Source of the DNA: Candidatus Magasanikbacteria bacterium RIFCSPHIGHO2_02_FULL_48_18
Lineage (GTDB): Bacteria > Patescibacteriota > Patescibacteriia > Magasanikbacterales > UBA922
Reading direction: 5' to 3'
Length of the DNA: 64,000 bases
Assembly: GCA_001784285.1 (NCBI GenBank)
Contig: MFQC01000003.1
Coordinates: forward strand, 221,517 to 285,516
The notes beneath the pieces are model-generated. The model did no database searches, was not told where the DNA came from, and saw only the letters and a program-made list of their open reading frames with translations. Positions within the stretch are counted from its first letter, which is position 1, and every line of letters begins with the position of its first letter. Both the position numbers and the translations under genes were made by a program. Of the stretch, positions 1,854 through 64,000 are shown piece by piece.

Positions 1854-2255
1854 TCAAGTCTGTTCCCGTTTGGTATATGTGCGATCATATTCAAACCCGG
1901 CGGCCGTCGTTAAAACCAGCATTTCGAGAAGACCAACATACAATCTCCAATCACCGAAAAATTCGGCGTAGGAGTGGACAAACAACGGAACGGTGATGAG
2001 CGAATCCAAGAGACTCCCGACAATAATGGCCACAATGCCAAGCATGATTCCTTTCTGAATACTCGGAGGATCCTGTTTGAAATACCATTTCGCGGTGAGA
2101 AACACCACGGGAATTTCTGCAAGCCACCAGCCAAAGTATATCCTCGTTTCGTTATCTTTGAGTCCCGGGAGAAACATGAGGATAGAAATCACAACAAAAA
2201 TAAAAACCCATAACAAAATACCAAAACCGATTGCCCGTTTCAAGTTTATGGTCAT
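1854..2255 (-). CDS. hypothetical integral membrane protein (4 predicted TM helices)
   Basis: 133-aa ORF with hydrophobic segments. No recognisable motif. Confidence 0.45.
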   Translation of the reverse strand: MTINLKRAIGFGILLWVFIFVVISILMFLPGLKDNETRIYFGWWLAEIPVVFLTAKWYFKQDPPSIQKGIMLGIVAIIVGSLLDSLITVPLFVHSYAEFFGDWRLYVGLLEMLVLTTAAGFEYDRTYTKREQT

Positions 2256-2358: not shown

Positions 2359-3045
2359 CTAACCCAGCAACATCTCTTTTGTAATCTCAAAAAGACTGTT
2401 GACTTCAATATCCGCCTTCGACAAATCTTGTTTCGCCATTGCATTGCTTCCGGAATAATGAACGCCAATACAGCGCATCCCGGCGGCTTTTGCGGCGATA
2501 ACTCCCTTAGCCGCGTCTTCCAAAACGACGCAATGTTCTTCCGGCAGAGCAAGCTGTTGCGCCGTCACCAAAAACGTTTCCGGATCTGGTTTGCCTCGAT
2601 GTAGATTTTCTCCAGACACAACCACATCAAAATATGACTCAAGGCCCAACTGGAGGAGACACAGAGTAATATACTCGAAAGACCCGGAAGAAGCAACGGC
2701 CTTTTTCAATCGTAAATCAAGGACCAGTTCGGTTATTTCTCGGACACCCGGCATGGATTTCCCGTGGCGCTTCACCAAATCAACAAAAAGACGCTGGCGT
2801 TCTCTATACATGTCACCAAAAAATTCTTGAGGAATATGATGGATGGTCATAAGGTCTTTGATCATGTCGCTCACTCGCATCCCCATATATTGTGGATCTG
2901 CATCGTCTCGCAAAAACGGGCCGCTCACATACCGCTCCAAAACCAAACGCGTGGCTTCTGTATGACAAGATACATTATCCACCAACACTTCATCCAAATC
3001 AAAAATAATGGCATCTGTCTGTGTCATATCGTTTATACTACTCAT
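2359..3045 (-). CDS. HAD-superfamily hydrolase (beta-phosphoglucomutase-like phosphatase)
   Basis: N-terminal DxD motif IIFDLDEVLVDN and HAD-IA like C-terminus (GDxxxD). ATG at 3045 overlaps the upstream stop (ATGA) at 3042-3045. Confidence 0.8.
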   Translation of the reverse strand: MSSINDMTQTDAIIFDLDEVLVDNVSCHTEATRLVLERYVSGPFLRDDADPQYMGMRVSDMIKDLMTIHHIPQEFFGDMYRERQRLFVDLVKRHGKSMPGVREITELVLDLRLKKAVASSGSFEYITLCLLQLGLESYFDVVVSGENLHRGKPDPETFLVTAQQLALPEEHCVVLEDAAKGVIAAKAAGMRCIGVHYSGSNAMAKQDLSKADIEVNSLFEITKEMLLG

Positions 3046-4007
3046 ACGCGTCGCAAGGTGGTTATCGGACGGCTTTGCGTAATAAAAAATTTTCCGTTTG
3101 CGTATGCCCATTCAATATCGCATGGAAATCCATAGTGGCATTCTACGGCTTTGCAGAGAGCGGCCAGCTCCAAAATATGGCTCGTATCCATTTTTTGTTT
3201 TTGCCCTTCTTCGCCAAGAGACACCCATATATTTTGCGCTGAGTGCTCTGTTTCAACAGCAGACGCTCGGACCAATTTTTTTGTTTGATGCCCAACACAC
3301 GTCTCTTCAATCGTCATCGCATCTTTCGCAATCACATAGCTATCGGGCGTGACATAGCCCCCGACAATGGCTTCGCCCAAGCCAAACGCGGCTTCGATAA
3401 TCATATGATTTGGATTTTCCGTCACCGGATGGACCGTAAAGGCCACCCCGGATAGTTCGGACTGAACCATTGTCTGGACGACCACCGCCACTGAAACATC
3501 GTGATCAATCAAATTTTTTTCATGGCGATAAAAAATTGCTCTTGCGGTAAACAAAGAAGACCAGCATTGTTTGATACGAGGCACTATATATTCTCTCGTG
3601 GTGTTGAGATATGTTTCGAGCTCCCCTGCCCAACTGGCGACATCAGAATCTTCCGCAGTCGCGCTCGATCGAACGGCAACGAATGGCGAGTGTAATTGAT
3701 CAAATGCGTGATAGATCTCCTCTATAATCTCAGCCGGAAAAGGAGTGTCATGAATCACATCGCGCAATATAGCGCTGGATCGTTCAATGGAGTTAATATC
3801 CTCCGGATGCGTTTCAGCGAGCCGCGCCGCAATTTCTTGTTTGATCTGTGTTGCCGCTATAAACGAATCAAAGGCGGATGACGGAATAACAAAACCCGGC
3901 GGAACCGGAATGCCTGCCTGCGTCAATTCTCCAAGCGATGCGCCCTTGCCGCCGGCAATCGCAACATCCTTTTTTGTGAGTTGTGAAAACCAAAGAATGG
4001 CGCTCAT
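3042..4007 (-). CDS. stand-alone PEP synthase / PPDK N-terminal nucleotide-binding domain protein (PPDK_N, ATP-grasp-like)
   Basis: GGKGASLGEL, AVRSSATAEDSDVASWAGELETYLN and C-terminal CDIEWA motifs typical of PPDK_N. No swivel or TIM-barrel domain follows (321 aa only). Confidence 0.85.
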   Translation of the reverse strand: MSAILWFSQLTKKDVAIAGGKGASLGELTQAGIPVPPGFVIPSSAFDSFIAATQIKQEIAARLAETHPEDINSIERSSAILRDVIHDTPFPAEIIEEIYHAFDQLHSPFVAVRSSATAEDSDVASWAGELETYLNTTREYIVPRIKQCWSSLFTARAIFYRHEKNLIDHDVSVAVVVQTMVQSELSGVAFTVHPVTENPNHMIIEAAFGLGEAIVGGYVTPDSYVIAKDAMTIEETCVGHQTKKLVRASAVETEHSAQNIWVSLGEEGQKQKMDTSHILELAALCKAVECHYGFPCDIEWAYANGKFFITQSRPITTLRRV

Positions 4008-4198
4008 GAGGCATGCGTGACAGAACGAATAAATCCAACCGTATCAAGTTTGAATTTCTTTTCGAGAATTGCTTCAAGCGCTGTGAGAAAATCATGATTG
4101 TCGCAATGTTCAAGCGCCAATTGCATGAGTTCTTTTCTTTTTTCCACCGGAATTGTTTCAAGAGAAAAAAGAAGGGAAAAAATATGCTGTATCACCAT
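4004..4198 (-). CDS. small hypothetical protein (64 aa) translationally coupled to PPDK_N gene
   Basis: Stop TGA overlaps downstream ATG (ATGA at 4004-4007). Alpha-helical-looking sequence. Sits inside the operon. Confidence 0.4.
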   Translation of the reverse strand: MVIQHIFSLLFSLETIPVEKRKELMQLALEHCDNHDFLTALEAILEKKFKLDTVGFIRSVTHAS

Positions 4199-4216
4199 AT
4201 CATGCGACGAAAAAAA

Positions 4217-5323
4217 TTAAATTTTGGTCCGTTTATTTGCAAGCCATTCAAAGGTTGGACCAAAAAATTCACGCCCAAGCGTGGGATACGCTCTTTGCGG
4301 ATCAATAAGAGCACGCACATCCTCAACCGTCATCCCTGCTTTTTTGCCAAGCTCCCAAAGACGGCTGGCATAATCAACCAGGGCACGCTGACCGGAGGAA
4401 AGATTGCCGGACACCTGAACAATTTCCCCTCCAAAATTCACCGTAAAATCTTTCCCCGGCTCCCGCGTGGGATAATCGGTTCCAACCGGAATTTCCGGAT
4501 GGTGTTGCGTAGAAAATGCCTGATCTTTCCCTTCAAATGCGTCCCGGTACGACAGCGCGGCCCATAGACCGGTCGTCGGGCTTTCCGTTAAGACCGCGAC
4601 ACCGCTTATGCCTTCTTTTTGGGGCACCGCAACCGTATTATAGGCCTGAGCGCCAAAGGTATCCCCGAGCCGAGAATACACCGGATGACTCTGCCCGGCG
4701 GCTGTGGGAGTTTCAATCTGCGACCCGGCATTGATAATGCCCGGGATCATTGGCGCGCCGGCTATATGCGCGAGATCCTGATGGCCAAGGCAGACACCCA
4801 CCATAGGCGTTTTTTCACGCAACGCCGCTTCCAGTTCCCGAAGAAGCGGTGTCCGCGATGGGTCGCTTGGATATCCCGGCCCACCGCCGATGCAAACGCC
4901 AATACGATTTTGCAACAAACGATGCATTTTTTCTTGATCTTCAAGAGTAATCGTCCCATCTATACTGACATGGATAACATTTTCCGCAAATCGAGGATCA
5001 ATTTGTACGATTCTTCCTTCGACTTGATAATATATTTCCTCAATATGAGGACGAAACTGTTCTGGCGTGGCGTCGCGGACCCAGCCTGCCGTGAATGGAG
5101 AGGTGACAATGTGAAGTATAGGATCAAAACCATCCACTCGAATGAGCCGCTCCATGGTTTCTGCCGCTTTGTCTGCCTCTTCATCCGTATAGGGCCGGAC
5201 ATCCCGATTGACGCCGAGGTACTCCGCGACATTGGTGATAATTCGCCGCTCTTCGGGAGGCAGGTTCATGCCCTCCAAAAATTCCGGCGTGCGAAATGAT
5301 GTTCCTATTTCTCGTGAATTCAT
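4217..5323 (-). CDS. class I glutamine amidotransferase-like protein (peptidase C26 / gamma-glutamyl hydrolase-like)
   Basis: Nucleophile elbow GVCLGHQ and overall GATase1 topology, with a long N-terminal extension. Confidence 0.7.
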   Translation of the reverse strand: MNSREIGTSFRTPEFLEGMNLPPEERRIITNVAEYLGVNRDVRPYTDEEADKAAETMERLIRVDGFDPILHIVTSPFTAGWVRDATPEQFRPHIEEIYYQVEGRIVQIDPRFAENVIHVSIDGTITLEDQEKMHRLLQNRIGVCIGGGPGYPSDPSRTPLLRELEAALREKTPMVGVCLGHQDLAHIAGAPMIPGIINAGSQIETPTAAGQSHPVYSRLGDTFGAQAYNTVAVPQKEGISGVAVLTESPTTGLWAALSYRDAFEGKDQAFSTQHHPEIPVGTDYPTREPGKDFTVNFGGEIVQVSGNLSSGQRALVDYASRLWELGKKAGMTVEDVRALIDPQRAYPTLGREFFGPTFEWLANKRTKI

Positions 5324-5333
5324 AAAAACGCAA

Positions 5334-6740
5334 TTATTGTTTCTTCACCTGTCCCACAATTTGAAAACATCCATCCTGCATAAGATTGGTCACCAGATTG
5401 TGAGATGACCGAGCCATGGCGCCGACATATCTTCCTTGAATCATGTACGGCCCAAAATCGTGATTGATATATTTTAAGGAAACCTTGTTGTCCTCAACAA
5501 ACGGCTCCGCATGCTGGGGAATCGTTATATATTCCTGCACAATCCACCCGCCGTCTTTGACGCCCCGCGCAATAACTTTTTTCCATTGCGGTTTTGTCAT
5601 TTTTTTGCCAATGCATATATTTGCGCCATAGGTGCCGATGGATGGCTTGATCAAAAGATGTTTTTGTTCTTTGATGAGATAATCAACCAGCTCAACCGTG
5701 TCTCCCATCACGTTCGTTGTTTTTCTCTTTTCAATAATTCTGGTCCACGGACACATATTTCCCAAAATCTGTTTTTGTTTTTCCGTAAGATACGATGAAA
5801 ATCGTTCGTCCGTGAAAAATGCAAAGAGCGCTTTGTGCGCGAATACTGAAGAACTCAGCGGATTGACAATACAGACCGCGCCATCATAAAACGCGCGAAG
5901 AATATCCTGGTAAAGAGGCGTGGTGTCTTCCAAAAGATGGCTCAAATCAAACCATCGCAAAACCAAATCATACGCTGTTCCATGATACCATACTTTTTTG
6001 TCTCGGTAATGGACCTGCTGGACGTCTCCGACAAAAGCATGGCTCCCAAATTTTTGAAATTCCTGGCACAAAAAATCCGAATCCTGATTGTACTGCCCGC
6101 TCCATCGAAGAATCAAGATATTCGGATGCGACGCAGTTCCTCCCCACTGTTTGTATGAATCAAGGAGCGCCCGATACATCTTTTTGGCCCATGTACTATA
6201 GTAGCGTATGTGATATTTTTTTTGAAATGATGCCCAAAAGGGAAACCGTTCAAGGACATCAGTCAAATCTTCAACCCAGCCGGGCGTTGCCGCGCAATTG
6301 GTGTTGAGTTCGTAGACGCGCAACCCATGTTCCGGAGTAATCACGCTGTCAAAACGCGCAAAAATTACCGGATGAGGAAAGGGTGTCGGCGCGCGCAATA
6401 ACTGGACCTCTGTTGTGGTAAGATGAAAATAGGTCTGGACGGCTTTTGACGAAGAAAGGACCTTTTGGAGGGTGGGAAGGACATCAAAAAATGTTTCCGT
6501 CCGCTCTCTGACGTGCCGCTCTATCCGCGGCGTGACAAACCGAGGCTTGATGCCGCCCGCAATAAGGCGGCCATTAAAAAATTTACCGTCCTCAAGCATT
6601 TTGTACCCGTGAAATGCCAGATAATGCGGCAATGTTTTTTTCGTCGCGGCAACATGTTTCTTGAACTCGGCAATATAGTCTTGATCAACCTTGTCAAGAA
6701 ATGCGAATTCTTCTTTTGGGATGATGAGGGTCTGTTTCAT
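5334..6740 (-). CDS. glutathionylspermidine-synthase-like / circularly permuted ATP-grasp family carboxylate-amine ligase (putative)
   Basis: 468 aa. Resembles the GspS/CP-ATP-grasp (DUF407-like) fold by eye (LIKPS.G..G, VQEYI patterns). Not verified. Confidence 0.5.
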   Translation of the reverse strand: MKQTLIIPKEEFAFLDKVDQDYIAEFKKHVAATKKTLPHYLAFHGYKMLEDGKFFNGRLIAGGIKPRFVTPRIERHVRERTETFFDVLPTLQKVLSSSKAVQTYFHLTTTEVQLLRAPTPFPHPVIFARFDSVITPEHGLRVYELNTNCAATPGWVEDLTDVLERFPFWASFQKKYHIRYYSTWAKKMYRALLDSYKQWGGTASHPNILILRWSGQYNQDSDFLCQEFQKFGSHAFVGDVQQVHYRDKKVWYHGTAYDLVLRWFDLSHLLEDTTPLYQDILRAFYDGAVCIVNPLSSSVFAHKALFAFFTDERFSSYLTEKQKQILGNMCPWTRIIEKRKTTNVMGDTVELVDYLIKEQKHLLIKPSIGTYGANICIGKKMTKPQWKKVIARGVKDGGWIVQEYITIPQHAEPFVEDNKVSLKYINHDFGPYMIQGRYVGAMARSSHNLVTNLMQDGCFQIVGQVKKQ

Positions 6741-6749
6741 AAAAAATGA

Positions 6750-8249
6750 TTATAAGATCGTGACAATGCCGCGCGTGGCATCAACCTCGACACGCATCCC
6801 ATCCTTTAGGACATGCGTTGCCGTTGCCGTGCCAACCAAGCACGGAATACCCAACTCTCGACATATAATGGCCGCGTGGCAGTTGAGGCCTCCTTCATCG
6901 GTAATCACGGCGGCGGCTTTTTTCATTGCAGGCACATATTCCGGTTGCGTCATACATGCAACCAGGATATCGCCAACTTCCACATTGGCAATTTCTTTTT
7001 CTCCTCGACACACTTTTACTCGTCCGCATGCTTTTCCAAGGGATGCGCAATTTCCTTTCAATTGCTTTGAATTCGACACGGCAGAGGAGACAAATGAATC
7101 TTGGATATTTTTTCGCTGAAACAAATGGAACAGCTGTTTTGCTTCTTCCCCCGCAAAAAGATATTCCGAAGCATTCTGAAGAAGAACATATAAACTTCCG
7201 GTCCGGCGCTTCGCGAGTTCGTCTTTCATTGTGGAAAGATCTTCCAATTCTGAAATGCGCGTATACCGCGCGTCCTCGATCGGCACACCGGCTCGCTTCG
7301 CAATTTCCGCCAATAAAAAGTCAAGATAATGAACGGATATGGTGAGACACTCCTTTCTTCTGTCATGAATTTGGAATATAGTGTCCTGCATCCGCAACAA
7401 ATCAATCAGTTCGACATTGGATATTTTTTGAAGCAGTGCGCGTTTTTTTTCCAAATGCTCGGGCAGACGTTCATATTCTTGTATGGTTTTTCCAATATCT
7501 TCCGGATGAGTGCTATATCCTTCCAATTCTTTCGTAAAATCTTCTGTTGTGACATACTTCGCCGATGTATAACTATTCAGCTTCCAAAAATATTTTTGCT
7601 GATGACGGCGTATCTTTTCTTGTATAACGGAATCCAATAGCAATGATCCTGCTGTTATTGCCGAGATTTCTTTTTGTGTGGCAAGACGCAAAATACAGCA
7701 CAAATCGTATCGTTCGGTGGTGATAAAAGAATGACGCGATGGCATCGTAAGAAGCATCATCGTATCTGTATCGTCGCCATATTCCTGTGCAACCAAATTC
7801 CGAATACGGCCCTCTGTCACAAGCGTAAACCCCTCAATACAATGAGAAACAGAAAGAAGCCGCCCGCACAAGCGGTTTACCTCCCGCCACAGCGAATAGA
7901 CAATATCCGGTGAAAGAACGGCCCAATTTTCTGATCCAATTTTTTGATATGCGGCCAAAACTTCTGTGCAAATGCGTTCATTTTCTCTCTCTATATACGT
8001 AAGGTACCCGGCATCCTTTGTATATCTTTCCCACAATTCACGAAAGATGCGTTCAAGGTCATCCCATGCGTACAAATAATAGGCTTTTTCCTGTTCAAAG
8101 AAAATAACTGATGCCGTATAACCATACCCCAAAAAAGCCGGCATGTCGCGAACCATCGAAAATGCAGGGCCATAGAGAAGAGCCGGAACGGCATTAAACC
8201 CTTGAAAATACCATTCCTTTTTTGTGAGGTCGGCAAAAAATGATTCCAT
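6750..8249 (-). CDS. PEP-utilizing enzyme mobile (phosphohistidine swivel) domain protein with ~380-aa uncharacterised N-terminal domain
   Basis: C-terminal GDILVACMTQPEYVPAMKKAAAVITDEGGLNCHAAIICRELGIPCLVG is a canonical PEP-utilizers swivel domain with catalytic His. It is paralogous to 61984-63396 and 63393-63986. Confidence 0.8.
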   Translation of the reverse strand: MESFFADLTKKEWYFQGFNAVPALLYGPAFSMVRDMPAFLGYGYTASVIFFEQEKAYYLYAWDDLERIFRELWERYTKDAGYLTYIERENERICTEVLAAYQKIGSENWAVLSPDIVYSLWREVNRLCGRLLSVSHCIEGFTLVTEGRIRNLVAQEYGDDTDTMMLLTMPSRHSFITTERYDLCCILRLATQKEISAITAGSLLLDSVIQEKIRRHQQKYFWKLNSYTSAKYVTTEDFTKELEGYSTHPEDIGKTIQEYERLPEHLEKKRALLQKISNVELIDLLRMQDTIFQIHDRRKECLTISVHYLDFLLAEIAKRAGVPIEDARYTRISELEDLSTMKDELAKRRTGSLYVLLQNASEYLFAGEEAKQLFHLFQRKNIQDSFVSSAVSNSKQLKGNCASLGKACGRVKVCRGEKEIANVEVGDILVACMTQPEYVPAMKKAAAVITDEGGLNCHAAIICRELGIPCLVGTATATHVLKDGMRVEVDATRGIVTIL

Positions 8250-8253
8250 AGTG

Positions 8254-9072
8254 CTATCCCTTGCCCCCCTCTTGTTCCCCCCATACTCTCCCCGCTTCTT
8301 GAATCAAATCTTCGGCATTAAAAAAGGTCCCCACACGCTGATGCAGTCGGTCGCCGGCAAAACCATTGAGGTACGTGCCGGCGAGAGCAGAAACAAGCGT
8401 CTCATTTACGGTGTACAGTCCCGCAATAAGCCCAACAAGCACATCCCCGGTTCCCCCTTTGGTCATACCCACATTGCCGGTGGTGTTGGCAAAGAGCACT
8501 GCTCCATCGCTAATATAGTCCGTGGCGCCGGTCAAAACGATGGTGCAGGCGTATTGTTGTGCCATTTTTTGGACATTTTCTTTCGTGGCGTCGCAATGAA
8601 ATACATTTTCAAACTCGCGAGAATGCGGCGTGAGAATGCAGTTTTTATGGAGATATCCGGGTTCTACATGCCACAAGGCCGTTGCATCCACAATGATTTT
8701 TTTGTTTGGATATTTTTCCAAAATGTCGTGAACCAACGCAATCGTTTGCTCATCTTCCGGCAACCCCGGACCCATGGCAATCACGTCAACGAGTTCAATA
8801 ACTTCCCATAATTTTTTTGCTGAAACCGCAATAAACGTCGCAATGTTTTGACGAAGTTTTTGTATAAGTTTAAGATTTTCTTTTGTGGAGTGGACATACA
8901 CCATGTCAACCAGTCGAGACGCGGCCTCTACCGTGAGGACAAGGGCACCATGAAAGGTATCCGAACCGGCAATGATAAGCAGGCGCCCATTTTGCCCTTT
9001 ATGGCTCATCGGAAGAGGCCGTGCGATACGTTCCAATATGGTGTGATCAAGGATATTCATACGCAAAAACAC
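8254..9072 (-). CDS. nnrD: ADP-dependent (S)-NAD(P)H-hydrate dehydratase (YjeF C-terminal domain)
   Basis: KGQNGRLLIIAGS...HGA and GGTGDVLVGLIAGL signature motifs. Confidence 0.85.
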   Translation of the reverse strand: MFLRMNILDHTILERIARPLPMSHKGQNGRLLIIAGSDTFHGALVLTVEAASRLVDMVYVHSTKENLKLIQKLRQNIATFIAVSAKKLWEVIELVDVIAMGPGLPEDEQTIALVHDILEKYPNKKIIVDATALWHVEPGYLHKNCILTPHSREFENVFHCDATKENVQKMAQQYACTIVLTGATDYISDGAVLFANTTGNVGMTKGGTGDVLVGLIAGLYTVNETLVSALAGTYLNGFAGDRLHQRVGTFFNAEDLIQEAGRVWGEQEGGKG

Positions 9073-9075
9073 CCC

Positions 9076-10968
9076 TTAATCAAACCGTATAATCTCATCC
9101 TGGTCAAGGACCATTGGCCGAGGAGGTGGCGGTATATTGTTAGGAGCTTGTGGAGAACTGTCCGGAACAATGTTCTGATTCTCTGCCGCCGGTTGGGGCG
9201 CGGGCTGATTGTGCAATTGAAGTCGAAGAGGAGGTTGGGGCTTGGGTCTTGACTCAGCCGGAGGCTGAGTTGATGGTTGGGGTTGAACCGATGAATCAGC
9301 GCTCTTTTTTTTCTTGCGCTTGCGTTTTCTTTTCTTTTTTCCCTCCGGGAGAGGTTCTCTAACGTCATATTCTTTTGGCTGTGCTGTCATTTCTTCTTTT
9401 TTTTCTTTTGGCAACAAATCTTTAAGAGAAATACTTGGCGCCGGCGGCGGTTCTTCTTTTTTTTCTTGTTTTTTTGGCGGTGCTACGATCTGCGACGGCC
9501 CTTTGGGGCGGGAATCATCATTGCTTTTTTCTTTTGACACGGCATTATCCACATGTTTTGGCGCGTCATTCTTTTTTTCAGCTTTTTCTTCCTTTTTGAC
9601 CGAGGGCGCCAAATCGATTGATTCGTCATCGTCTTCATCATCGTCTTCTCCGGCTTCCATACCGCTCCATCGCATAATTTTATCCTCTATGGTATTTCTT
9701 GCTTTTGCATATCGTTCCCGAGACACGCGAATTATTTTTTCAGTGGATCCGGTTGGCGACCCGATGGGAGAAAGCGTGGTCGCGGTAAACGGCAAGGAGG
9801 CAACGCCGTTAATCATAAGCTTGAGAATAACTTGAAACTTTGCAAGGTTGACAATGTCTTCTTCCAAAAACTGCGGCGTGAATTCTTTGACCAACAGTTC
9901 CGCATCCGCGCCGCCAACGCGAAAGGTGACAATGGTCCCTACGTTTCCAAACACTGCGTCAGACACAAGTTCATCAAGTTGCGCCACATATTGGTGACCC
10001 ATAATGAGACTGAGGCGGTATTTTCTCGCTTCGGACAAGATATTCGCGAAACTGGGCGTGGCAAAATTTTGAAACTCATCCACATACAGAAAAAAATCAC
10101 GCCGCTTTTCTTCCGGTGTATCCACGCGTTCCATGGCAGAGAGCTGAATTTTGGTGATCAGCATGCCGCCCAAAAGACGGCTATTATCTTCTCCAATGCG
10201 TCCTTTGGACAAATTCATGATAAAAATTTTTCCTGAATCCATAATTTCGCGCACATCAATCGTGGATTTCACCTGCGCCACCATATTTCGGATAATATTC
10301 GCGGACAAAAATTGGCCAATTTTATTTTGAATCGGCGCGACAGCTTCGGTCATATACCGATCTGGATAATTGGCGAATTCCGTATTCCAAAAGGATTTGA
10401 TCACTGGGTCTTTGAGCTGTTTCACGACTTTTTTCCGATATTTTTTATCGGCAAGCAGGCGGTTGATGCCAAGAAGCGTGGAATTGGGATAATCCAAAAG
10501 CGCAAGAAGCGTATTGTTCAAAATATATTCCATGCGCGCGCTCCACACGTCCGGCCATATTTTTTTGAATGTGCCCATCATTCCTGCGGCCACCAAATGC
10601 TTTTGCTCTTCGCTTTTCACCTCGAGGATATTAAATCCGATTGGGTATTGTACATCGGCAGGATTGAGATAGACCACGTCGTTAACACGGCTTGACGGAA
10701 TATAATCAATAATTTTTTCCGCAAAATCGCCGTGCGGATCCACAATACCAACCCCGTGGCCGCTGTAGATATCGTTCAAGACCATGTTTTCCATCATGGT
10801 CGTCTTGCCCATGCCGGTTTTTCCGATCACATACATGTGGCGGCGCCGATCGTCGAGTTTAATGCCAAAACGCCGCATTTGATTGCGGAAATTGGTTTTG
10901 GCGAAAACGCAGATTGGTTCCTCTTCTCTTTTTTCGCCGTCTTTTTGCGTCAGATGATGCATTGGCAT
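9076..10968 (-). CDS. TraD/VirD4-like (T4SS coupling protein / DUF87-type) P-loop ATPase with ~200-aa low-complexity K/E/P-rich C-terminal tail
   Basis: Walker A GKTGMGKTT, then VDPHGD. Long disordered tail (DDDEDDDE..KKEEK..PPAP..KKKRKRKRKKKK..PQP). Confidence 0.5.
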   Translation of the reverse strand: MPMHHLTQKDGEKREEEPICVFAKTNFRNQMRRFGIKLDDRRRHMYVIGKTGMGKTTMMENMVLNDIYSGHGVGIVDPHGDFAEKIIDYIPSSRVNDVVYLNPADVQYPIGFNILEVKSEEQKHLVAAGMMGTFKKIWPDVWSARMEYILNNTLLALLDYPNSTLLGINRLLADKKYRKKVVKQLKDPVIKSFWNTEFANYPDRYMTEAVAPIQNKIGQFLSANIIRNMVAQVKSTIDVREIMDSGKIFIMNLSKGRIGEDNSRLLGGMLITKIQLSAMERVDTPEEKRRDFFLYVDEFQNFATPSFANILSEARKYRLSLIMGHQYVAQLDELVSDAVFGNVGTIVTFRVGGADAELLVKEFTPQFLEEDIVNLAKFQVILKLMINGVASLPFTATTLSPIGSPTGSTEKIIRVSRERYAKARNTIEDKIMRWSGMEAGEDDDEDDDESIDLAPSVKKEEKAEKKNDAPKHVDNAVSKEKSNDDSRPKGPSQIVAPPKKQEKKEEPPPAPSISLKDLLPKEKKEEMTAQPKEYDVREPLPEGKKKRKRKRKKKKSADSSVQPQPSTQPPAESRPKPQPPLRLQLHNQPAPQPAAENQNIVPDSSPQAPNNIPPPPRPMVLDQDEIIRFD

Positions 10969-11002
10969 AGGGTATAGTATAGCAATTCGGAAGTGAAATG
11001 TT

Positions 11003-11031
11003 AAGAAAACCCCGATACTGTTCGGGGTTTT
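11003..11031 (-). terminator. Rho-independent terminator after the DsbA-like gene
   Basis: Hairpin aaaaccccga-tactgt-tcggggtttt followed by a U-run on the minus strand. Confidence 0.5.
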
Positions 11032-11057: not shown

Positions 11058-11867
11058 TTATTCGAGAAATTGTTGAATTGCGGCCTCAACCGCGGCAAAG
11101 GATTGGGCTCCGTTTATGACGGACGTCTCTCCGTTCGGCCCAATAACAATACTATACGGCGTTCCCCTGCCGCCCGATTGCTGTACTTCGGTTTCGTCAT
11201 CCACAATATCCTTTGCATATTTTTTACTTTGAAGACACGTCGTAAACTGGTTGGTCTTCAGCCCAAGCGCTGAGGCGAAACTTTTAAGTCCGGATTCTCC
11301 CAGATTGTTCTGATCGGCAAACATCATATCGGAAAATTCCCAAAATTTCCCCTGCTCGGAGGCGCATTCAGAGGCCAAGGCGGCGTTTCGAGCGTTGGGA
11401 TGGAGACTATCAAGCGGAAAATGACGATAGACCCATCGCACATCGTCGCCATAGGTTTCTATCACTTGTTTCATGGTGGCATCAAAACTTTTGCAAAATG
11501 GACATTGAAAATCAGAAAATTCGATAACGCTGATTGTGGCATTTTTATTGCCGCGGATGTGGTCGGTCTTCACATCAACAGGCCGAATGGCGACAGGACC
11601 GGAAACCGTGTCATCAACGACGGCAGACCCCGCAGTGTCCTCAACAGATGGCACGAAGTCACTGCCGGCAGACAGATATGACCCCAAGGCGCCGCTGCCC
11701 CGAAGGAGTATGGACAACAGCAGAAAAAAACCAATGGTGCAAAGGACAAGAAAACCTTCCACAATGCCAAGCACAAAAATTTGTATCGGGCTCATTTGAT
11801 CAAAAATACCGCTTTTTTCTTCCTGTGTTTCTGTCAAACTCTTACCGGATTGTGTGGGCGATTCCAT
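11058..11867 (-). CDS. membrane-anchored DsbA-like thiol:disulfide oxidoreductase
   Basis: N-terminal TM helix. Thioredoxin-fold with CPFC active site (FQCPFCKSF). Confidence 0.8.
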   Translation of the reverse strand: MESPTQSGKSLTETQEEKSGIFDQMSPIQIFVLGIVEGFLVLCTIGFFLLLSILLRGSGALGSYLSAGSDFVPSVEDTAGSAVVDDTVSGPVAIRPVDVKTDHIRGNKNATISVIEFSDFQCPFCKSFDATMKQVIETYGDDVRWVYRHFPLDSLHPNARNAALASECASEQGKFWEFSDMMFADQNNLGESGLKSFASALGLKTNQFTTCLQSKKYAKDIVDDETEVQQSGGRGTPYSIVIGPNGETSVINGAQSFAAVEAAIQQFLE

Positions 11868-12104: not shown

Positions 12105-12698
12105 CTATGGGGCATCATTCGACATATTTTCCAATAACACCAACGCTTTCTCTTGGAGACTCTCAAATGCAACATATCCTTTTTCATGAAAAAGGATATC
12201 TCTTTCAGGCGTCACAAAAAGAATCTCCGGCAGAGAAGAACCCCCAATCGTTCGATAAAAAAAATCTTCGTTATCCACGGCCAGAGAGAGTTCGTTGGTG
12301 ATGCCCAAACTATCGGTAAAAGCTTTTGCCACTGACGATGGTTCGCGGCGGTTGATCGCAATAAATGGAATAACGCCGCCGAGTTGCCGCCGCACAAACG
12401 CGGCCTGAATCAATTGCTCCCCGCACCGCTCACAGGCGGTTTCCCAAGAGATAATCACCAGTGGCTTCCCATAAAACGCCGCAAGCGAAAACGATGTCCC
12501 ATCATAGGTTTGAAGGCCCGGAATATCGGGGAGGCGTGAAACCAGCGGTGCGTCGTTTTCCACAGTGTTTGACGCTGGCGTATTGATGATTCGACCGCCG
12601 CACCCAGCCACGAATGGCAGGAGAAAAAAAATTAGGATACGCATCGATAAATACTGAGTTGACATATAATACAAAAATGGTATGATTCTTTTATGCAC
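12105..12698 (-). CDS. TlpA/ResA-like redoxin (thioredoxin-fold lipoprotein)
   Basis: Lipobox-like LLPFVAGCGG and WETACERC (CxxC) active site. True start may be an internal Met (about 12665). Confidence 0.7.
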   Translation of the reverse strand: MHKRIIPFLYYMSTQYLSMRILIFFLLPFVAGCGGRIINTPASNTVENDAPLVSRLPDIPGLQTYDGTSFSLAAFYGKPLVIISWETACERCGEQLIQAAFVRRQLGGVIPFIAINRREPSSVAKAFTDSLGITNELSLAVDNEDFFYRTIGGSSLPEILFVTPERDILFHEKGYVAFESLQEKALVLLENMSNDAP

Positions 12699-12807: not shown

Positions 12808-13416
12808 ATGTATATGATGCACGAATCATGCCATTGTCATCCAAATCAAGAAACATCTTTCATCAATACGCAGATTCCCGATCTTTCATTTGACATATTT
12901 CACAATAACCAAATACAGCGGGTGAATTTTTCCAACTACAAAGGAAAATGGCTTATTCTCTTCTTTTACCCCGCAGATTTTACATTTGTCTGTCCAACCG
13001 AACTTGAAGAAATGGCAGACCTTTACCCGCAATTCACCGCACTCAACTGCGAAGTGGTCAGCGTCAGCACCGATACGGCCTTTGTCCACAAAGCCTGGCA
13101 TGACACATCGCCAGCCATTAAAAAAATTAACTATCCAATGGCGGCAGACCCCACTGGAACCATCTGCAAAACGTTTAGAACCTACATTCCGGAAGAAGGC
13201 CTTTCATACCGCGCGAGTATTGTTATCAACCCCGATGGCGTTGTGAAAGCGTTTGAAATGCACGACAACAGTATTGGCCGAAGCGCGGAAGAGCTCCTTC
13301 GCAAGCTTCAAGCCGCGCAATATGTCAGCGAACATAGCGGCGAAGTATGCCCGGCAAAATGGAAACCGGGAAGCGCAACCTTGCGCCCAGGATTGGATTT
13401 GGTGGGGAAAATCTAA
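12808..13416 (+). CDS. 2-Cys peroxiredoxin (AhpC/Prx1 family)
   Basis: FTFVCPTE peroxidatic Cys motif and VCPAKW resolving Cys motif. Confidence 0.9.
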   Translation: MYMMHESCHCHPNQETSFINTQIPDLSFDIFHNNQIQRVNFSNYKGKWLILFFYPADFTFVCPTELEEMADLYPQFTALNCEVVSVSTDTAFVHKAWHDTSPAIKKINYPMAADPTGTICKTFRTYIPEEGLSYRASIVINPDGVVKAFEMHDNSIGRSAEELLRKLQAAQYVSEHSGEVCPAKWKPGSATLRPGLDLVGKI

Positions 13417-13473: not shown

Positions 13474-14052
13474 ATGCTCTACACACCAAAAAACTTCACC
13501 CAATTGTTGGGTATGGAAGGATTCAGCGACCAATTGCTGAAAAATCATTTTACGCTCTATGAAGGGTATGCCAAAAATACAAATACCCTTCTTGAAAAAC
13601 TCCCTGTCCTGGATCCCGGCTCGCCGGAATTTAACGAACTCAACCGTCGGTTCGGCTGGGAATTTAACGGCATGCGTTTGCATGAAATCTACTTTGAAAA
13701 TCTCTCCAAAGAAAATACATCTCTTGACAGCGGACATCCGCTGGCAAAAAAAATAGATGAATGTTTTGGCTCATTCGAAAAATGGCAGATGCATTTTAAC
13801 GGTATGGGGACCATTCGCGGCATTGGCTGGGTATTGCTGTATTACGATACGGAAATGAAGCGTTTATTCAATGTGTGGATTGACGAACATGACCGCAATC
13901 ATCTTGCGGGGGAGGCCCCTATTCTCCTCATGGATATGTGGGAACATGCGTTTATGATTGACTACGGACTGGATAAAAAAGGGTATATTGGAGCATTTTT
14001 GAAAAATGCGAATTGGCGTATTGCCATGGAACGATTCAACATGGCGAAGTAA
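13474..14052 (+). CDS. Fe/Mn superoxide dismutase
   Basis: DMWEHAF metal-binding signature and overall SOD_Fe length of about 190 aa. Confidence 0.85.
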   Translation: MLYTPKNFTQLLGMEGFSDQLLKNHFTLYEGYAKNTNTLLEKLPVLDPGSPEFNELNRRFGWEFNGMRLHEIYFENLSKENTSLDSGHPLAKKIDECFGSFEKWQMHFNGMGTIRGIGWVLLYYDTEMKRLFNVWIDEHDRNHLAGEAPILLMDMWEHAFMIDYGLDKKGYIGAFLKNANWRIAMERFNMAK

Positions 14053-60959: not shown

Positions 60960-61904
60960 TCAGGATAAAACTTCAATCCCCAACAAATACGTCACGACCG
61001 CAACCGCCACTTCTCGATACGGCGCGTACTTCATATGAAGAGACCTCGGATCCGGATCAACATCTTCGTTGACTTCGCCGCAACGCGGGGTAATCACGAC
61101 CAGTTGCGCGTCGTCTCGCATCATTTTCATTTTTTCACGATTCACCGGCACAAATGTTTTTTTCACGTGCTCGGTTAATTCCGGCGACAATGCCGATCCG
61201 CCGGCTTTGGTGAGAATGAGGGCGTCGACATCGCCGATAAAATTATCCAATGTGTCGTACGTCAAATTTTTTAATCCGTTTTGTTTTGCTGCGTCAACGG
61301 TTTCTTGTTTTATTGGAAATTTGCCGCCAAGGTCATCAATAACCAAATCAACGCCATAATGACCAAGAACCGGAATAAGCGACGTACAGCATCGGCCTCC
61401 CCCGCTTTTCGCGCCGGGTGTTCCGTAGATCCCAATTTTCATTCCTTGAAGCGGACGCTTCATGTGATACGTCATTTGCGCCAACAGCATAATACCGGCC
61501 AACGCGTGCTCGCGCGTTCCGGATCCGCCGTTAATAATGGGAATGCTCGACACCCGCGCCGCGCGCTCGGCCGCGTCGTCCTCGGGATGGCGCATGAGAA
61601 GACAATCAACAAATGACCCATACGTCACGATCAAATCTTCCCACGTTTCGCTTTTTCCAAGGGTTTCGTCTTTACCGATCGAGGACTCCGCAAAACCCAC
61701 CCATCCGCCGCCCGCGCGGATCATGCCGGATTGAAACGCGGTCATGGTGCGGATAGAGGTTTGCATAATGAGTGTGGCAATCACTTTGCCCTGGAGCAAT
61801 GTTGGCGGAATACCTTCATCAACAAATTTTTTTGTTCGACGAAGCAATTCGTCATAGCCCACCCTATCAATATCGCGGGCCGAAATAAAATGGTTTGGAG
61901 GCAT
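60960..61904 (-). CDS. aspartate/ornithine carbamoyltransferase-fold protein, divergent motifs
   Basis: MQTSIRTMTAF (compare STRTR), RHPED (compare HPxQ), ITPRCGE (compare HCLP). Both CP-binding and second-domain regions present, but non-canonical. Confidence 0.6.
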   Translation of the reverse strand: MPPNHFISARDIDRVGYDELLRRTKKFVDEGIPPTLLQGKVIATLIMQTSIRTMTAFQSGMIRAGGGWVGFAESSIGKDETLGKSETWEDLIVTYGSFVDCLLMRHPEDDAAERAARVSSIPIINGGSGTREHALAGIMLLAQMTYHMKRPLQGMKIGIYGTPGAKSGGGRCCTSLIPVLGHYGVDLVIDDLGGKFPIKQETVDAAKQNGLKNLTYDTLDNFIGDVDALILTKAGGSALSPELTEHVKKTFVPVNREKMKMMRDDAQLVVITPRCGEVNEDVDPDPRSLHMKYAPYREVAVAVVTYLLGIEVLS

Positions 61905-61983: not shown

Positions 61984-63396
61984 CTATATCTTCTTTATGG
62001 TTCCTTTTTCCGCATCCACCTCAACCATATCGCCATCATGAAATATTTTTGTTGCATTTTTAGTGCCAATAACGCATGGAATTTGGAGTTCTCTTGAAAC
62101 AATCGCCGCGTGGCAGACAACACCCCCTTCGTCGGTGACAATGGCGCCTGCTTTGCGTATCCCAACCATGTACTCCGGATGGGTCATGGACGCCACAAGA
62201 ATTTCACCGTCCCGCAACAAACGAATATCTTTGGCATGTTGAATAATGCGCACACGGCCCCGGGCATTGCCAGGAAACGCGGACCTCCCACGGACGGTTT
62301 CTTTCCCGTCTTTCTCAAAATAATCCGGAATCAATTCCGCGAGAAATTGATCCCGCGCGTTTGGCTCGGCAATGACCGTGGTGTTCTTTTTTTGGAAATG
62401 CGTAATATACATCTCTTTCAAACGGTGATGCAGTATTTCCTCTTCCAAGACTCTCCCCGTCTCGCACGCATAAATAATCTCTTTTTTGGTTAAGTGCCCC
62501 GCAGAGCCGGACGGGAGCTGAAAATACCGTTCAAAGGCTCTATAAAATGGCGCGGCATTCATGAGTCCCCATTTATATCGGTCAATGCGTTCGGTGCGCA
62601 AAAAAACGTACATATGAATGGTGCGCGCCAGCTCGTACAACACCGGATCATCATGACGCAAGCGAGAAAAAATATGTTCTATTTTTTGACGCGTCTGTTC
62701 TCTCCCATCGCGCATCTCACGGAGCGCATCACGGGGATCGGCATATTCGGCAATAAGCCCCTCCAATTCTTTTTCGGTCCAGTATCGGTCATTCACAGAA
62801 TACCCATTGAGGTGGCCAAACTGCTGTTGTAATTGTTGAAGCCTTTCTCTGTCTCCTCCCGTTATTTTCCATTCAAGAAGCCCTTCAATCAATTGGTGCA
62901 TTTGTATGGATTCCGATGGCAACGCAAGTGTGTCGTATATAGCCTGCCAATCCGCATACCATTTTTGAAGGAGATCCCGCAATCGATCCTCAAGCACATA
63001 GGTAATAGACCAAGGAAACCATATATACGGCACATACCTGTCCCACACACGTGTAAACACTTCATAGAGGGGGAGGAGATTGTTTCCCCATCCATCCTCC
63101 GCGGCAGAACGCAATTCCAGGACAGCCCGCTCTATCACAGCCCAATCCTCTTCAAACGCCGACCGGTGCCGATCAATCGACCAGTCAGGGCGGTCAACAA
63201 GGCTTGCCCATGCATTCATCAGCCGTAAAAATTCCTTTTCCACATACCATGCTTCCCACTTTCCTCCCGTCCCAACATAAATTACTGTGCTTAATGGCGT
63301 TGGCGACATGCGCAGTGCGGGAGCAACCAAGGAAATTTCCATGTCTTGCGTTCTGGTGGGACGGGTATAAATGCGTATGAATCGTTTGTGTGTCAT
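61984..63396 (-). CDS. PEP-utilizer swivel (phosphohistidine) domain protein with Trp-rich uncharacterised N-terminal domain (paralog 2)
   Basis: C-terminus GEILVASMTHPEYMVGIRKAGAIVTDEGGVVCHAAIVSRELQIPCVIG. Overlaps the next gene by 4 nt. Confidence 0.8.
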   Translation of the reverse strand: MTHKRFIRIYTRPTRTQDMEISLVAPALRMSPTPLSTVIYVGTGGKWEAWYVEKEFLRLMNAWASLVDRPDWSIDRHRSAFEEDWAVIERAVLELRSAAEDGWGNNLLPLYEVFTRVWDRYVPYIWFPWSITYVLEDRLRDLLQKWYADWQAIYDTLALPSESIQMHQLIEGLLEWKITGGDRERLQQLQQQFGHLNGYSVNDRYWTEKELEGLIAEYADPRDALREMRDGREQTRQKIEHIFSRLRHDDPVLYELARTIHMYVFLRTERIDRYKWGLMNAAPFYRAFERYFQLPSGSAGHLTKKEIIYACETGRVLEEEILHHRLKEMYITHFQKKNTTVIAEPNARDQFLAELIPDYFEKDGKETVRGRSAFPGNARGRVRIIQHAKDIRLLRDGEILVASMTHPEYMVGIRKAGAIVTDEGGVVCHAAIVSRELQIPCVIGTKNATKIFHDGDMVEVDAEKGTIKKI

Positions 63397-64000
63397 AGTT
63401 TTGAAATTTGTTTTTTAATACTGCCATTTTCAGCGTCGACAATAACGGATTCTCCGCTTGCAAAAATCTCCATTGCGTTTTTCACGCCCACGATGCACGG
63501 AATATTCAACTCCCGAGAAATCACTGCCGCGTGCGAGGTCATGCCTCCTTGTTCGGCGACAATCGCCGCCGCTTTTTTCATGAGGGGGAGAAAATCCGGC
63601 GTCGTCTGGTTGGTAACAAGGATATCACCCCTCTCAAAGGAGTCAAATTGATCGCTTCCCAAAACCACGCGAACCGTCCCCGCCGCGCGTCCTCGGGATG
63701 CCGGCGTTCCTTTGGCTTCTTGAAGCATATGATAATCCTGAAAAAAATGAGCGAGGTCAATACCCTCAAGATCTTTTCGCAACAGAAGCGCGCACCCCTG
63801 CCTGTCAAACAATGCCAAACAGCCCTCGCGCCGTTCTGCGGCAAGAGAACGGAATGCGTCTGGATCGCGCAACAAATCTTTCAGCTCAAAAAACATGATA
63901 TAGCGTATAAGCTCGGGATCAAAACCAATCCGCCGCGCCAATTCATCAAGATAAAAAAATAAAAAATAATTTAACCGTAACACCACTTGCTTCCGACAAT
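63393..64000 (-). CDS. PEP-utilizer swivel domain protein (paralog 3), 5' end runs off the window
   Basis: C-terminus GDILVTNQTTPDFLPLMKKAAAIVAEQGGMTSHAAVISRELNIPCIVG. The listed ORF starts with GTG at 63986, but the frame stays open to 64000. Confidence 0.7.
   Translation of the reverse strand, partial: CRKQVVLRLNYFLFFYLDELARRIGFDPELIRYIMFFELKDLLRDPDAFRSLAAERREGCLALFDRQGCALLLRKDLEGIDLAHFFQDYHMLQEAKGTPASRGRAAGTVRVVLGSDQFDSFERGDILVTNQTTPDFLPLMKKAAAIVAEQGGMTSHAAVISRELNIPCIVGVKNAMEIFASGESVIVDAENGSIKKQISKL

Follow-up and report, generated by a model that had tools for sequence, protein, structure and literature searches.

A 64,000-nucleotide stretch of contig MFQC01000003.1 (positions 221,517 to 285,516 of the forward strand, assembly GCA_001784285.1) from Candidatus Magasanikbacteria bacterium RIFCSPHIGHO2_02_FULL_48_18, hereafter the window, carries at 2359-10968 a cluster of tightly packed minus-strand genes that encodes a predicted dikinase split over two proteins: a complete, stand-alone ATP-grasp subunit (beta) and a second subunit (alpha) that joins an acceptor domain to a C-terminal swivelling histidine domain. 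The same cluster encodes an amide-bond module made up of a circularly permuted ATP-grasp ligase, a class I glutamine amidotransferase (GATase)-type enzyme and a conserved small protein. On balance, we favour the explanation that a two-component dikinase and an amide-bond module have been kept together in Magasanikbacteria-type genomes of the Candidate Phyla Radiation (CPR). An original prediction, made from the nucleotide sequence, had described a nine-gene operon with a split phosphotransferase; the list of open reading frames (ORFs) gives eight genes. That prediction also missed the chief oddity of the system, namely that the swivel subunit comes in many copies, which form a diversified family.

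Beta is the sole protein of the window with a PPDK_N domain (PF01326), which is matched at 312 bits over positions 3-313 of 328 and is accompanied by no further domain. The NCBIfam models of phosphoenolpyruvate (PEP) synthase and of rifampin phosphotransferase (RPH) match it with their N-terminal thirds (332 and 260 bits, respectively). Its gene ends in a proper stop that overlaps the start of the following HAD phosphatase gene in an ATGA. Stand-alone proteins of the same type (313-338 residues) occur in five other loci, given here by our own labels: those in L003, L006 and L009 match beta at phmmer E-values of 1e-130 to 3e-117, and those in L091 and the P0035 contig were identified through PF01326 annotation only. 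The proper stop, the ATGA overlap and these five counterparts bear out the earlier view that the PPDK_N domain lies on a gene of its own rather than on a fragment.

In alpha, the acceptor domain spans residues 1-390 (7080-8249) and the swivel residues ~395-499. Neither hidden Markov model (HMM) searches nor fold comparisons find a PPDK_N domain in it, as the split reading had supposed, and HMM scans of the cluster proteins confirm that the ATP-grasp and His-swivel domains reside on separate polypeptides, with no match to the PEP-utilizers_C TIM barrel (PF02896). The N-terminal domain, which had been taken for a novel one, finds its place through a fold search. An AlphaFold2 model built on an alignment with 54 homologues (pLDDT 93, pTM 0.91) matches RPH over 480-580 aligned columns (Foldseek E-value ~1e-13). 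No other solved structure is matched over both acceptor and swivel; the remaining matches cover the ~100-residue swivel alone. Because RPH alone matches both domains, the N-terminal domain is predicted to fold like the rifampin-binding domain of RPH; a profile search of the PDB with the alpha alignment likewise recovers RPH, with a match that reaches only the last ~70 residues of the acceptor domain. Alpha and beta together amount to RPH cut behind its ATP-grasp domain.

The swivel is closest to those of true PEP synthases (E-value 6.5e-28 against 8A8E) and bears the motif T450-D-E-G-G-L-N-C-H458, of which T450, G453, G454 and H458 are invariant in the 54 homologues; the GG...H motif is retained in all 32 paralogues checked. 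The family consensus, GGLTCH, keeps the regulatory Thr of PEP synthase and pyruvate phosphate dikinase (PPDK) two residues ahead of the His. His458 (codon 6876-6878) is the predicted phospho-carrier. In the acceptor domain, Q16, D296, R298, K299 and R348 are invariant in the same alignment. RPH holds the phosphate through Gln337, Arg666, Glu667 and Lys670 (PMC4844700), and it is plausible that Q16, R298, K299 and R348 correspond to this network.

A search with the acceptor domain alone (residues 1-390) recovered 563 clusters at 50% identity. Nearly all of them are 460-520 residues long, and the domain begins at residue ~5-20; a small number, of 983-2648 residues, are multi-alpha fusions, and none of the 563 is fused to an ATP-grasp domain. 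As far as sequence goes, the alpha acceptor domain is thus a family of its own, with the split form as its norm. Those matches that carry an organism name come from CPR bacteria, Woesearchaeota or other archaea, most matches being without such a name. The family further forms tandem arrays, with 11 copies in L001, 5 in L003, at least 8 in L007 and at least 12 in L093. Within the arrays, the N-terminal domains average 17-18% identity and the swivels 53-54%, and the His is kept in all copies. At most one beta gene was seen per locus, and L001, L007 and L093 have none within the stretches examined. The simplest reading of this pattern is a single ATP-binding subunit shared by many acceptor subunits that differ in specificity. 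The window itself holds at least three alphas: by tblastn, the paralogue at 61984-63396 shows 42% identity over the swivel, with the GGxxH His kept and a divergent N-terminal domain, and the one at 63393-64000 shows 36% identity over residues 298-496. The latter is cut by the window end and probably begins a larger alpha array in this genome. The 499-residue alpha of the cluster has an orthologue in several arrays, with a shared Y-Q-F...D-R-K signature. We found no description of dikinase arrays of CPR or Patescibacteria in the literature.

Several members of the alpha family are fused proteins (P0066, P0068, P0069, P0096, P0098, P0114, P0155 and P0251). Family proteins of 744-867 residues are alpha-alpha tandem fusions with two PF00391 stretches; among the longer ones, three stretches of P0155 (1836 residues) and one of P0251 (2648 residues) match the N-domain query. 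A candidate fusion of alpha to a UDP-GlcNAc 2-epimerase was rejected, the PF02350 matches being sub-threshold and mostly overlapping or abutting the swivel. Adjoining the alpha paralogues near the window end is a divergent aspartate/ornithine-transcarbamylase-like gene (60960-61904, minus strand; PF02729), in which the carbamoyl-phosphate motif, canonically STRTR, reads SIRTMT. A homologue (29% identity, E-value 1e-32) at 14538-15488 of L093 lies inside the 12-copy alpha array of that locus, which also holds an Amidohydro_3 gene; the association of the transcarbamylase-like gene with alpha arrays is therefore conserved.

The combination had been put forward as not being a described system. This does not hold for the dikinase, of which PpsAB (from Thauera aromatica), PasAB, CreHI and HpeHI are two-component representatives of the same build: like the window proteins, they pair a separate PPDK_N subunit with an RPH-type acceptor that carries a C-terminal His swivel, and lack the TIM barrel. 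In the phenylphosphate synthase PpsAB and the phenylphosphoamidate synthase PasAB, alpha bears the phospho-His and beta resembles the N-terminus of PEP synthase (PMC7500099). In HpeHI, HpeI is the ATP-grasp subunit and HpeH combines a RIF-binding-like domain with the swivel; RPH is the sole PDB structure to align with the greater part of HpeH, the H581Q variant of HpeH is inactive, and HpeH alone moves phosphate between substrates (2025 JBC paper). The expected chemistry of this type, ATP to AMP, Pi and X-phosphate via His~P, would be shared by the window system. There are, however, several differences. Alpha has ~490 residues as against ~600-640 in the PpsAB/HpeHI type; the PpsA-type models NF006153/PRK08296 match only its residues 382-499 (105 bits against a cut-off of 578); and its family keeps GGLTCH where a Met is reported for HpeH-type proteins. 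The aromatic-catabolism context typical of the PpsAB type is also absent: no carboxylase or aromatic-pathway genes occur among the neighbours, which are Nnr, the ligase, the GATase, HAD, a TrwB-like ATPase and redox or housekeeping genes. Finally, unlike the PpsAB type, the alpha family resides in CPR bacteria and DPANN archaea, forms tandem arrays of up to 11-12 diverged paralogues and, in the window locus, is tied to a ligase of the glutathione synthetase (GS) fold, a GATase and a small protein.

RPH (RPH-Lm; 5FBS, 5FBT, 5FBU, 5HV1) shares with alpha the order of acceptor and C-terminal swivel, but it is a single polypeptide of 865 residues, whereas the window ATP-grasp domain is encoded by a separate gene. 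The RPH model NF041857 reaches 69 bits with alpha and 260 bits with beta against a cut-off of 999, and nothing points to rifamycin as the substrate of the window system. The ATP-grasp and swivel domains of PEP synthase and PPDK are clearly homologous to beta and alpha, but here they are placed on different proteins, the TIM barrel is absent and the acceptor fold is a different one; the PEP synthase models match only partially (129 and 332 bits, where the cut-off is 598). The two-component build itself is therefore already described; it is the alpha family, its arrays and its linkage to a ligase for which we found no description.

By homology to PpsAB, HpeHI and RPH, we infer the following reaction scheme, of which the dikinase part is likely to be right. 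Beta would bind ATP, and the alpha swivel would dock on it, so that His458 could attack the beta-phosphate with release of AMP; the gamma-phosphate would be hydrolysed to Pi. The His~P domain would then swing back onto the RPH-type acceptor domain of alpha, where Q16, R298/K299 and R348 are predicted to hold the phosphate, and the phosphate would pass to a nucleophile, probably a hydroxyl, of a small molecule. One beta probably serves several alphas, and these would have different substrates because their acceptor domains have diverged. In the amide-bond module, the ligase is predicted to join a carboxylate to an amine through an acyl-phosphate, and the GATase with its 64-residue partner would supply ammonia from glutamine or hydrolyse a gamma-glutamyl amide. 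Both modules may act on one pathway or metabolite, with the HAD enzyme removing or moving phosphate. A more far-reaching version, which we regard as distinctly unlikely in its entirety, has a single beta of CPR bacteria and DPANN archaea charging ten or more diversified alphas, each of which would phosphorylate, and so trap or activate, a different scavenged metabolite; organisms of minimal metabolism would thereby have a modular dikinase system of 'one charger, many acceptors'. In the window operon, one alpha would then act alongside the ligase, the GATase and the small protein in an amidation or ligation that is driven by phosphorylation and yields a gamma-glutamyl-type metabolite.

The window ligase has only sub-threshold matches to PF14403 and PF04174 (25.6 bits against a cut-off of 32 in the CP_ATPgrasp_2/GSP_synth test), several of its homologues carry precomputed PF14403 and PF03738 matches, and a sequence search of the PDB with it returned no match. 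The top 50 Foldseek matches of its AlphaFold2 model (pLDDT 89) are all GS, homoglutathione synthetase (hGS), glutathionylspermidine synthetase (GspS), trypanothione synthetase (TryS), YgiC, YjfC or 3N6X, with E-values down to 7e-17 and TM-scores of 0.55-0.66; the best include the human and yeast glutathione synthetases, homoglutathione synthetase and trypanothione synthetase. Identity to the solved GS/GspS-type ligases is only 9-15%. An alignment with homologues from other phyla has 25 invariant columns, in keeping with an active enzyme. Members of this rare family are few, 26 matches as against more than 1200 for alpha. Its relatives outside CPR occur in 266 loci of Gemmatimonadota, Chloroflexota, Planctomycetota and others, in a module of a RimK-like ATP-grasp protein, the ligase, a GCS2 ligase, a Peptidase_C26 protein and an esterase. 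More generally, ligase relatives adjoin genes for GCS2, Peptidase_C26 (gamma-glutamyl hydrolase) and the gamma-glutamyl cyclotransferase GGACT. These neighbours and the fold matches fit the GspS/CP-ATP-grasp assignment and the gamma-glutamyl theme of the original prediction. The window differs from such GS/GspS-type systems with GCS2 in that its cluster has no GCS2 gene, and tblastn finds neither GCS2 nor GGACT elsewhere in the window; the partner here is an extended class I GATase, not a C26 peptidase.

The latter enzyme had been called a GATase1/C26-like hydrolase. Its class I GATase part stands, by its PF00117 match and intact triad of Cys178 (codon 4790-4792), His275 and Glu277; the C26 part does not, since there is no PF07722 match and identity to the C26 neighbour of a non-CPR ligase homologue is only 25% over 177 residues. 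C178 of the CLGHQ motif and H275 are invariant, and E277 is present in seven of eight homologues, the eighth having Asp (HPD). The catalytic core is flanked by extensions at the N-terminus (~1-127) and C-terminus (~280-368). This CPR family consists of only six clusters and co-occurs with the ligase. Candidates for the synthase partner that would accept its ammonia are the neighbouring ATP-grasp ligase and the dikinase alpha. Immediately 3' of the GATase there is always the small protein, with homologues of 71 residues in L006, L009, L090 and L089; a three-way alignment with those of L006 and L009 has 21 invariant columns, and its sequence suggests a helical character. A second GATase type has its own partner of 76-83 residues.

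Two loci show extended versions of this module. L089 (Logan ERR7570000, 78-9766) has two pairs of GATase and small protein, three GCS2-like ligases and the gamma-glutamyl cyclotransferase GGACT, and L091 (6968-12043) has one such pair, one GCS2-like ligase and a 282-residue protein with a YGSL motif and no HMM match. Together they look like a biosynthetic and turnover set for a gamma-glutamyl-type compound in CPR. A '57-aa' gene of L091, considered as a further small partner, turned out to be the detached N-terminus of the ligase.

The eight genes are separated by gaps of 3, 4, 9, 10 and 18 nt and joined by two ATGA overlaps, one between the stop of the small-protein gene and the start of beta, the other between beta and HAD. 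The measured junctions agree with those first noted. Since tight same-strand packing is usual in the window, where 57 of the 67 ORFs share the minus strand and half of the junctions between same-strand neighbours measure 20 nt or less, spacing alone is weak evidence for an operon. Stronger evidence is the neighbourhood itself, which, as had been surmised, is conserved in related genomes, although in rearranged order (L006, L007, L009, L089, L090, L091, L092 and the P0035 contig). The window order is Nnr-alpha-Lig-GAT-small-beta-HAD, where Lig and GAT denote the ligase and GATase genes. The P0035 contig has Nnr-alpha-alpha-ATPgrasp-beta-alpha-GAT-small, with a 477-residue ATP-grasp protein that is not confirmed as an orthologue of the ligase. 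L091 has Nnr-GAT-small-GCS2-Lig-282aa-beta-x-alpha, L006 and L009 have Nnr-Lig-GAT-small-beta with alpha absent within 9-10 kb, and L090 has Nnr-Lig-GAT-small followed by an unannotated gene cut at the contig end. In L007 and L092, alpha arrays are divergent from the ligase gene. When the loci are grouped into lineages, beta and/or alpha lie within a few genes of the ligase in five of the six.

Several observations weigh against the joint system that we favour. On the side of the dikinase, the alpha acceptor domain is only ~17% identical to RPH, the PpsA-type HMMs reach only its swivel, such that the substrate class is not transferable, and the activity of the alpha family is predicted from homologues. 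On the side of the linkage, most alpha arrays are without a ligase; in L006 and L009 the Lig-GAT-small-beta operon lacks an alpha within the 9-10 kb seen; and L089 has a ligase module with no dikinase gene in 12 kb, its upstream side being cut at the contig end. No PPDK_N or swivel genes are found near the non-CPR relatives of the ligase, and the amide module can therefore work without the dikinase. Moreover, all co-located examples are from one CPR lineage, with 42-61% ligase identity, so that in these gene-dense genomes inherited synteny is a confounder. Taken together, a functional coupling of the dikinase and amide modules is about as probable as its absence.

The corresponding alternative, that the dikinase and the ligase/GATase/small-protein module are unrelated neighbours by inherited synteny in a gene-dense, largely single-strand genome, is possible although on the unlikely side. 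It would account for the strand bias and short junctions of the window and for modules that occur apart, both outside CPR and within it: L089 has GCS2, GGACT and a second GATase beside its ligase module, with no dikinase, and L001, L003 and L093 have alpha arrays but no ligase. The TrwB-Nnr anchor also suggests a conserved locus that receives variable gene insertions. Yet gene order varies by lineage while beta or alpha stays within a few genes of the ligase, beta lies inside the ligase operon of L006 and L009 with no alpha there, and the ATGA coupling of the small-protein gene to beta and of beta to HAD argues for co-expression. A closer union of the two modules, in which the dikinase is the 'synthase' half of a glutamine amidotransferase, seems improbable. 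Alpha~P would here phosphorylate a carbonyl or hydroxyl oxygen of the bound substrate and ammonia from the GATase would displace the phosphate, following the logic of formylglycinamidine ribonucleotide (FGAM) synthase and CTP synthase, with the small protein as a PurS-like adaptor and the ligase acting before or after. In favour of this, the GATase has its triad intact yet lacks a fused synthase domain, and its extensions at both termini are unexplained; the small protein always adjoins it; GAT-small lies next to beta in the window, L006 and L009; and NCBIfam records similarity to PigC and RedH, RPH relatives of a type that uses phosphorylation to drive condensation. Nevertheless, the two GATase-small pairs of L089 occur together with GCS2 ligases but without a dikinase, no similarity of the small protein to PurS or any other family is detectable, and as a partner that accepts ammonia the ATP-grasp ligase is just as good.

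It is highly improbable that the alphas are instead phospho-relay or regulatory proteins akin to Enzyme I/PtsP of the phosphotransferase system (PTS), passing His~P to proteins or polymers and possibly linked with the TraD-like ATPase. They do share the swivel with PTS Enzyme I, the GGLTCH consensus retains the regulatory Thr, and a TrwB-like ATPase directly precedes the alpha arrays of L001 and L003; but RPH, a small-molecule kinase, is the one match of the acceptor domain, no HPr-like or Enzyme I C-terminal domains are encoded nearby, and the arrays of Parcubacteria and Woesearchaeota have no TrwB. The presence of PPDK_N and swivel halves in one operon could also suggest the remains of a decayed PEP synthase or RPH gene, whether by frameshift or assembly artefact. 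The probability of this is negligible: three genes lie between the halves, in an order that is wrong for a broken PEP synthase or RPH gene, the domains are full-length and high-scoring with proper starts and stops, the split form recurs in hundreds of clusters and several genomes, and no remnant of a TIM barrel is present, which together refute a broken PEP synthase.

To our knowledge, two-component dikinases have so far been known only as entry enzymes for phenolic catabolism. The family described here constitutes a separate, large branch of this kind in CPR bacteria and DPANN archaea. The genomes of these CPR bacteria are typically only about 1 Mb in size, and investing more than 15 kb per locus in up to a dozen diverged acceptor subunits hence suggests an important role, which might lie in the scavenging of metabolites by phosphorylation, in detoxification or in envelope modification. 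The linkage to the ligase, GATases, GCS2 and GGACT is also a hint that Magasanikbacteria have an unrecognised metabolite of small-amide or gamma-glutamyl type. Worth following are the pairing of many alpha paralogues with one beta ('one beta, many alphas') in ultra-small genomes and the tie of this organisation to an amide-ligase module. Phenylphosphate synthase genes in metagenome-assembled genomes of DPANN archaea have been read as evidence of phenol degradation (PMC8091004); for the alpha family, whether or not those genes belong to it, the evidence argues against carrying over such a substrate.

Features of the predicted alpha-beta dikinase locus and related elements in the window (positions are those of the window)
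Feature	Position	Strand	Details
TrwB/TraD-like coupling-protein ATPase	9076-10968	-	630 aa; PF10412 1.1e-15, plus DUF87, TraG-D_C
Nnr-type ADP/ATP-dependent NAD(P)H-hydrate dehydratase, Carb_kinase family	8254-9072	-	272 aa; PF01256 8.4e-45
Dikinase alpha subunit (predicted)	6750-8249	-	499 aa; only Pfam match is the PEP-utilizers swivel, residues 425-494
Circularly permuted ATP-grasp amide ligase, GS/GspS fold (predicted)	5334-6740	-	468 aa
Class I GATase-type enzyme	4217-5323	-	368 aa; PF00117 9.7e-14, 51.9 bits
Conserved small protein	4004-4198	-	64 aa; zero HMM matches
Dikinase beta subunit (predicted), stand-alone PPDK_N	3042-4007	-	321 aa; PF01326 312 bits
HAD phosphatase/phosphomutase, beta-phosphoglucomutase family	2359-3045	-	228 aa from Met23; PF13419 1.8e-28
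Second alpha paralogue	61984-63396	-	470 aa; PF00391 at 395-465
Third alpha paralogue, cut by window end	63393-64000	-	PF00391 9.5e-29
Promoter-like site TTAACA-17-TATACT, extended -10	10976-11004	-	10/12 consensus match only

HMM searches (Pfam, NCBIfam) confirmed the domain assignments made earlier for each gene, and two window proteins are 100% identical to the NCBI entries DCY48_04025 and DCY48_04015. The HAD start was set at Met23 (3045) because the ATGA overlap needs that start; the first ATG (3111) would give a 70-nt overlap with the upstream gene. A promoter-like site lies just 5' of the first gene, that of the TraD-like ATPase. As the first strong terminator-like hairpin after the cluster is only found at 1344-1316 (minus strand), the transcription unit may extend beyond 2359.

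Among the flanking genes, Nnr is a firm assignment (TIGR00196, 188.8 bits against a cut-off of 129.85) and lies directly 5' of alpha, ligase or GATase genes in L006, L009, L090, L091 and the P0035 contig. The HAD protein remains below the cut-off of TIGR02009 (123.8 against 153 bits); in the Woesearchaeota locus L004 a HAD gene overlaps an alpha gene by 4 nt. The TraD-like ATPase ends in a low-complexity, Lys/Glu/Pro-rich C-terminal tail of ~200 residues. In L001, L003, L006, L090, L091 and the P0035 contig, TrwB-like counterparts precede Nnr, alpha arrays or the ligase module; they are absent from the Parcubacteria/Woesearchaeota loci L007, L092 and L004. The membership of this ATPase in the system is unproven, given that only Magasanikbacteria-type loci have it as an upstream anchor and that the Parcubacteria/Woesearchaeota arrays lack it. 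A -10-like box lies only 7 nt from its annotated ATG, which leaves room for a leaderless transcript or for the second ATG as the true start.

Directly upstream is a group of redox-defence genes, viz., those of a DsbA-like thioredoxin-fold protein (11058-11867), a weakly redoxin-like protein (12105-12698), an AhpC peroxiredoxin (12808-13416) and an Fe/Mn superoxide dismutase (13474-14052), which by adjacency only is of interest beside the GS-fold ligase and the Nnr repair enzyme. On the other side, after HAD and before the hairpin, come a 133-residue membrane protein (1854-2255, minus strand) and a double treble-clef zinc-finger protein (PF23477; 1366-1674, minus strand). The zinc-finger gene, followed by MnmA, also lies downstream of the ligase module in L006, and L089 has both the zinc-finger gene and a homologue of the 133-residue membrane protein.

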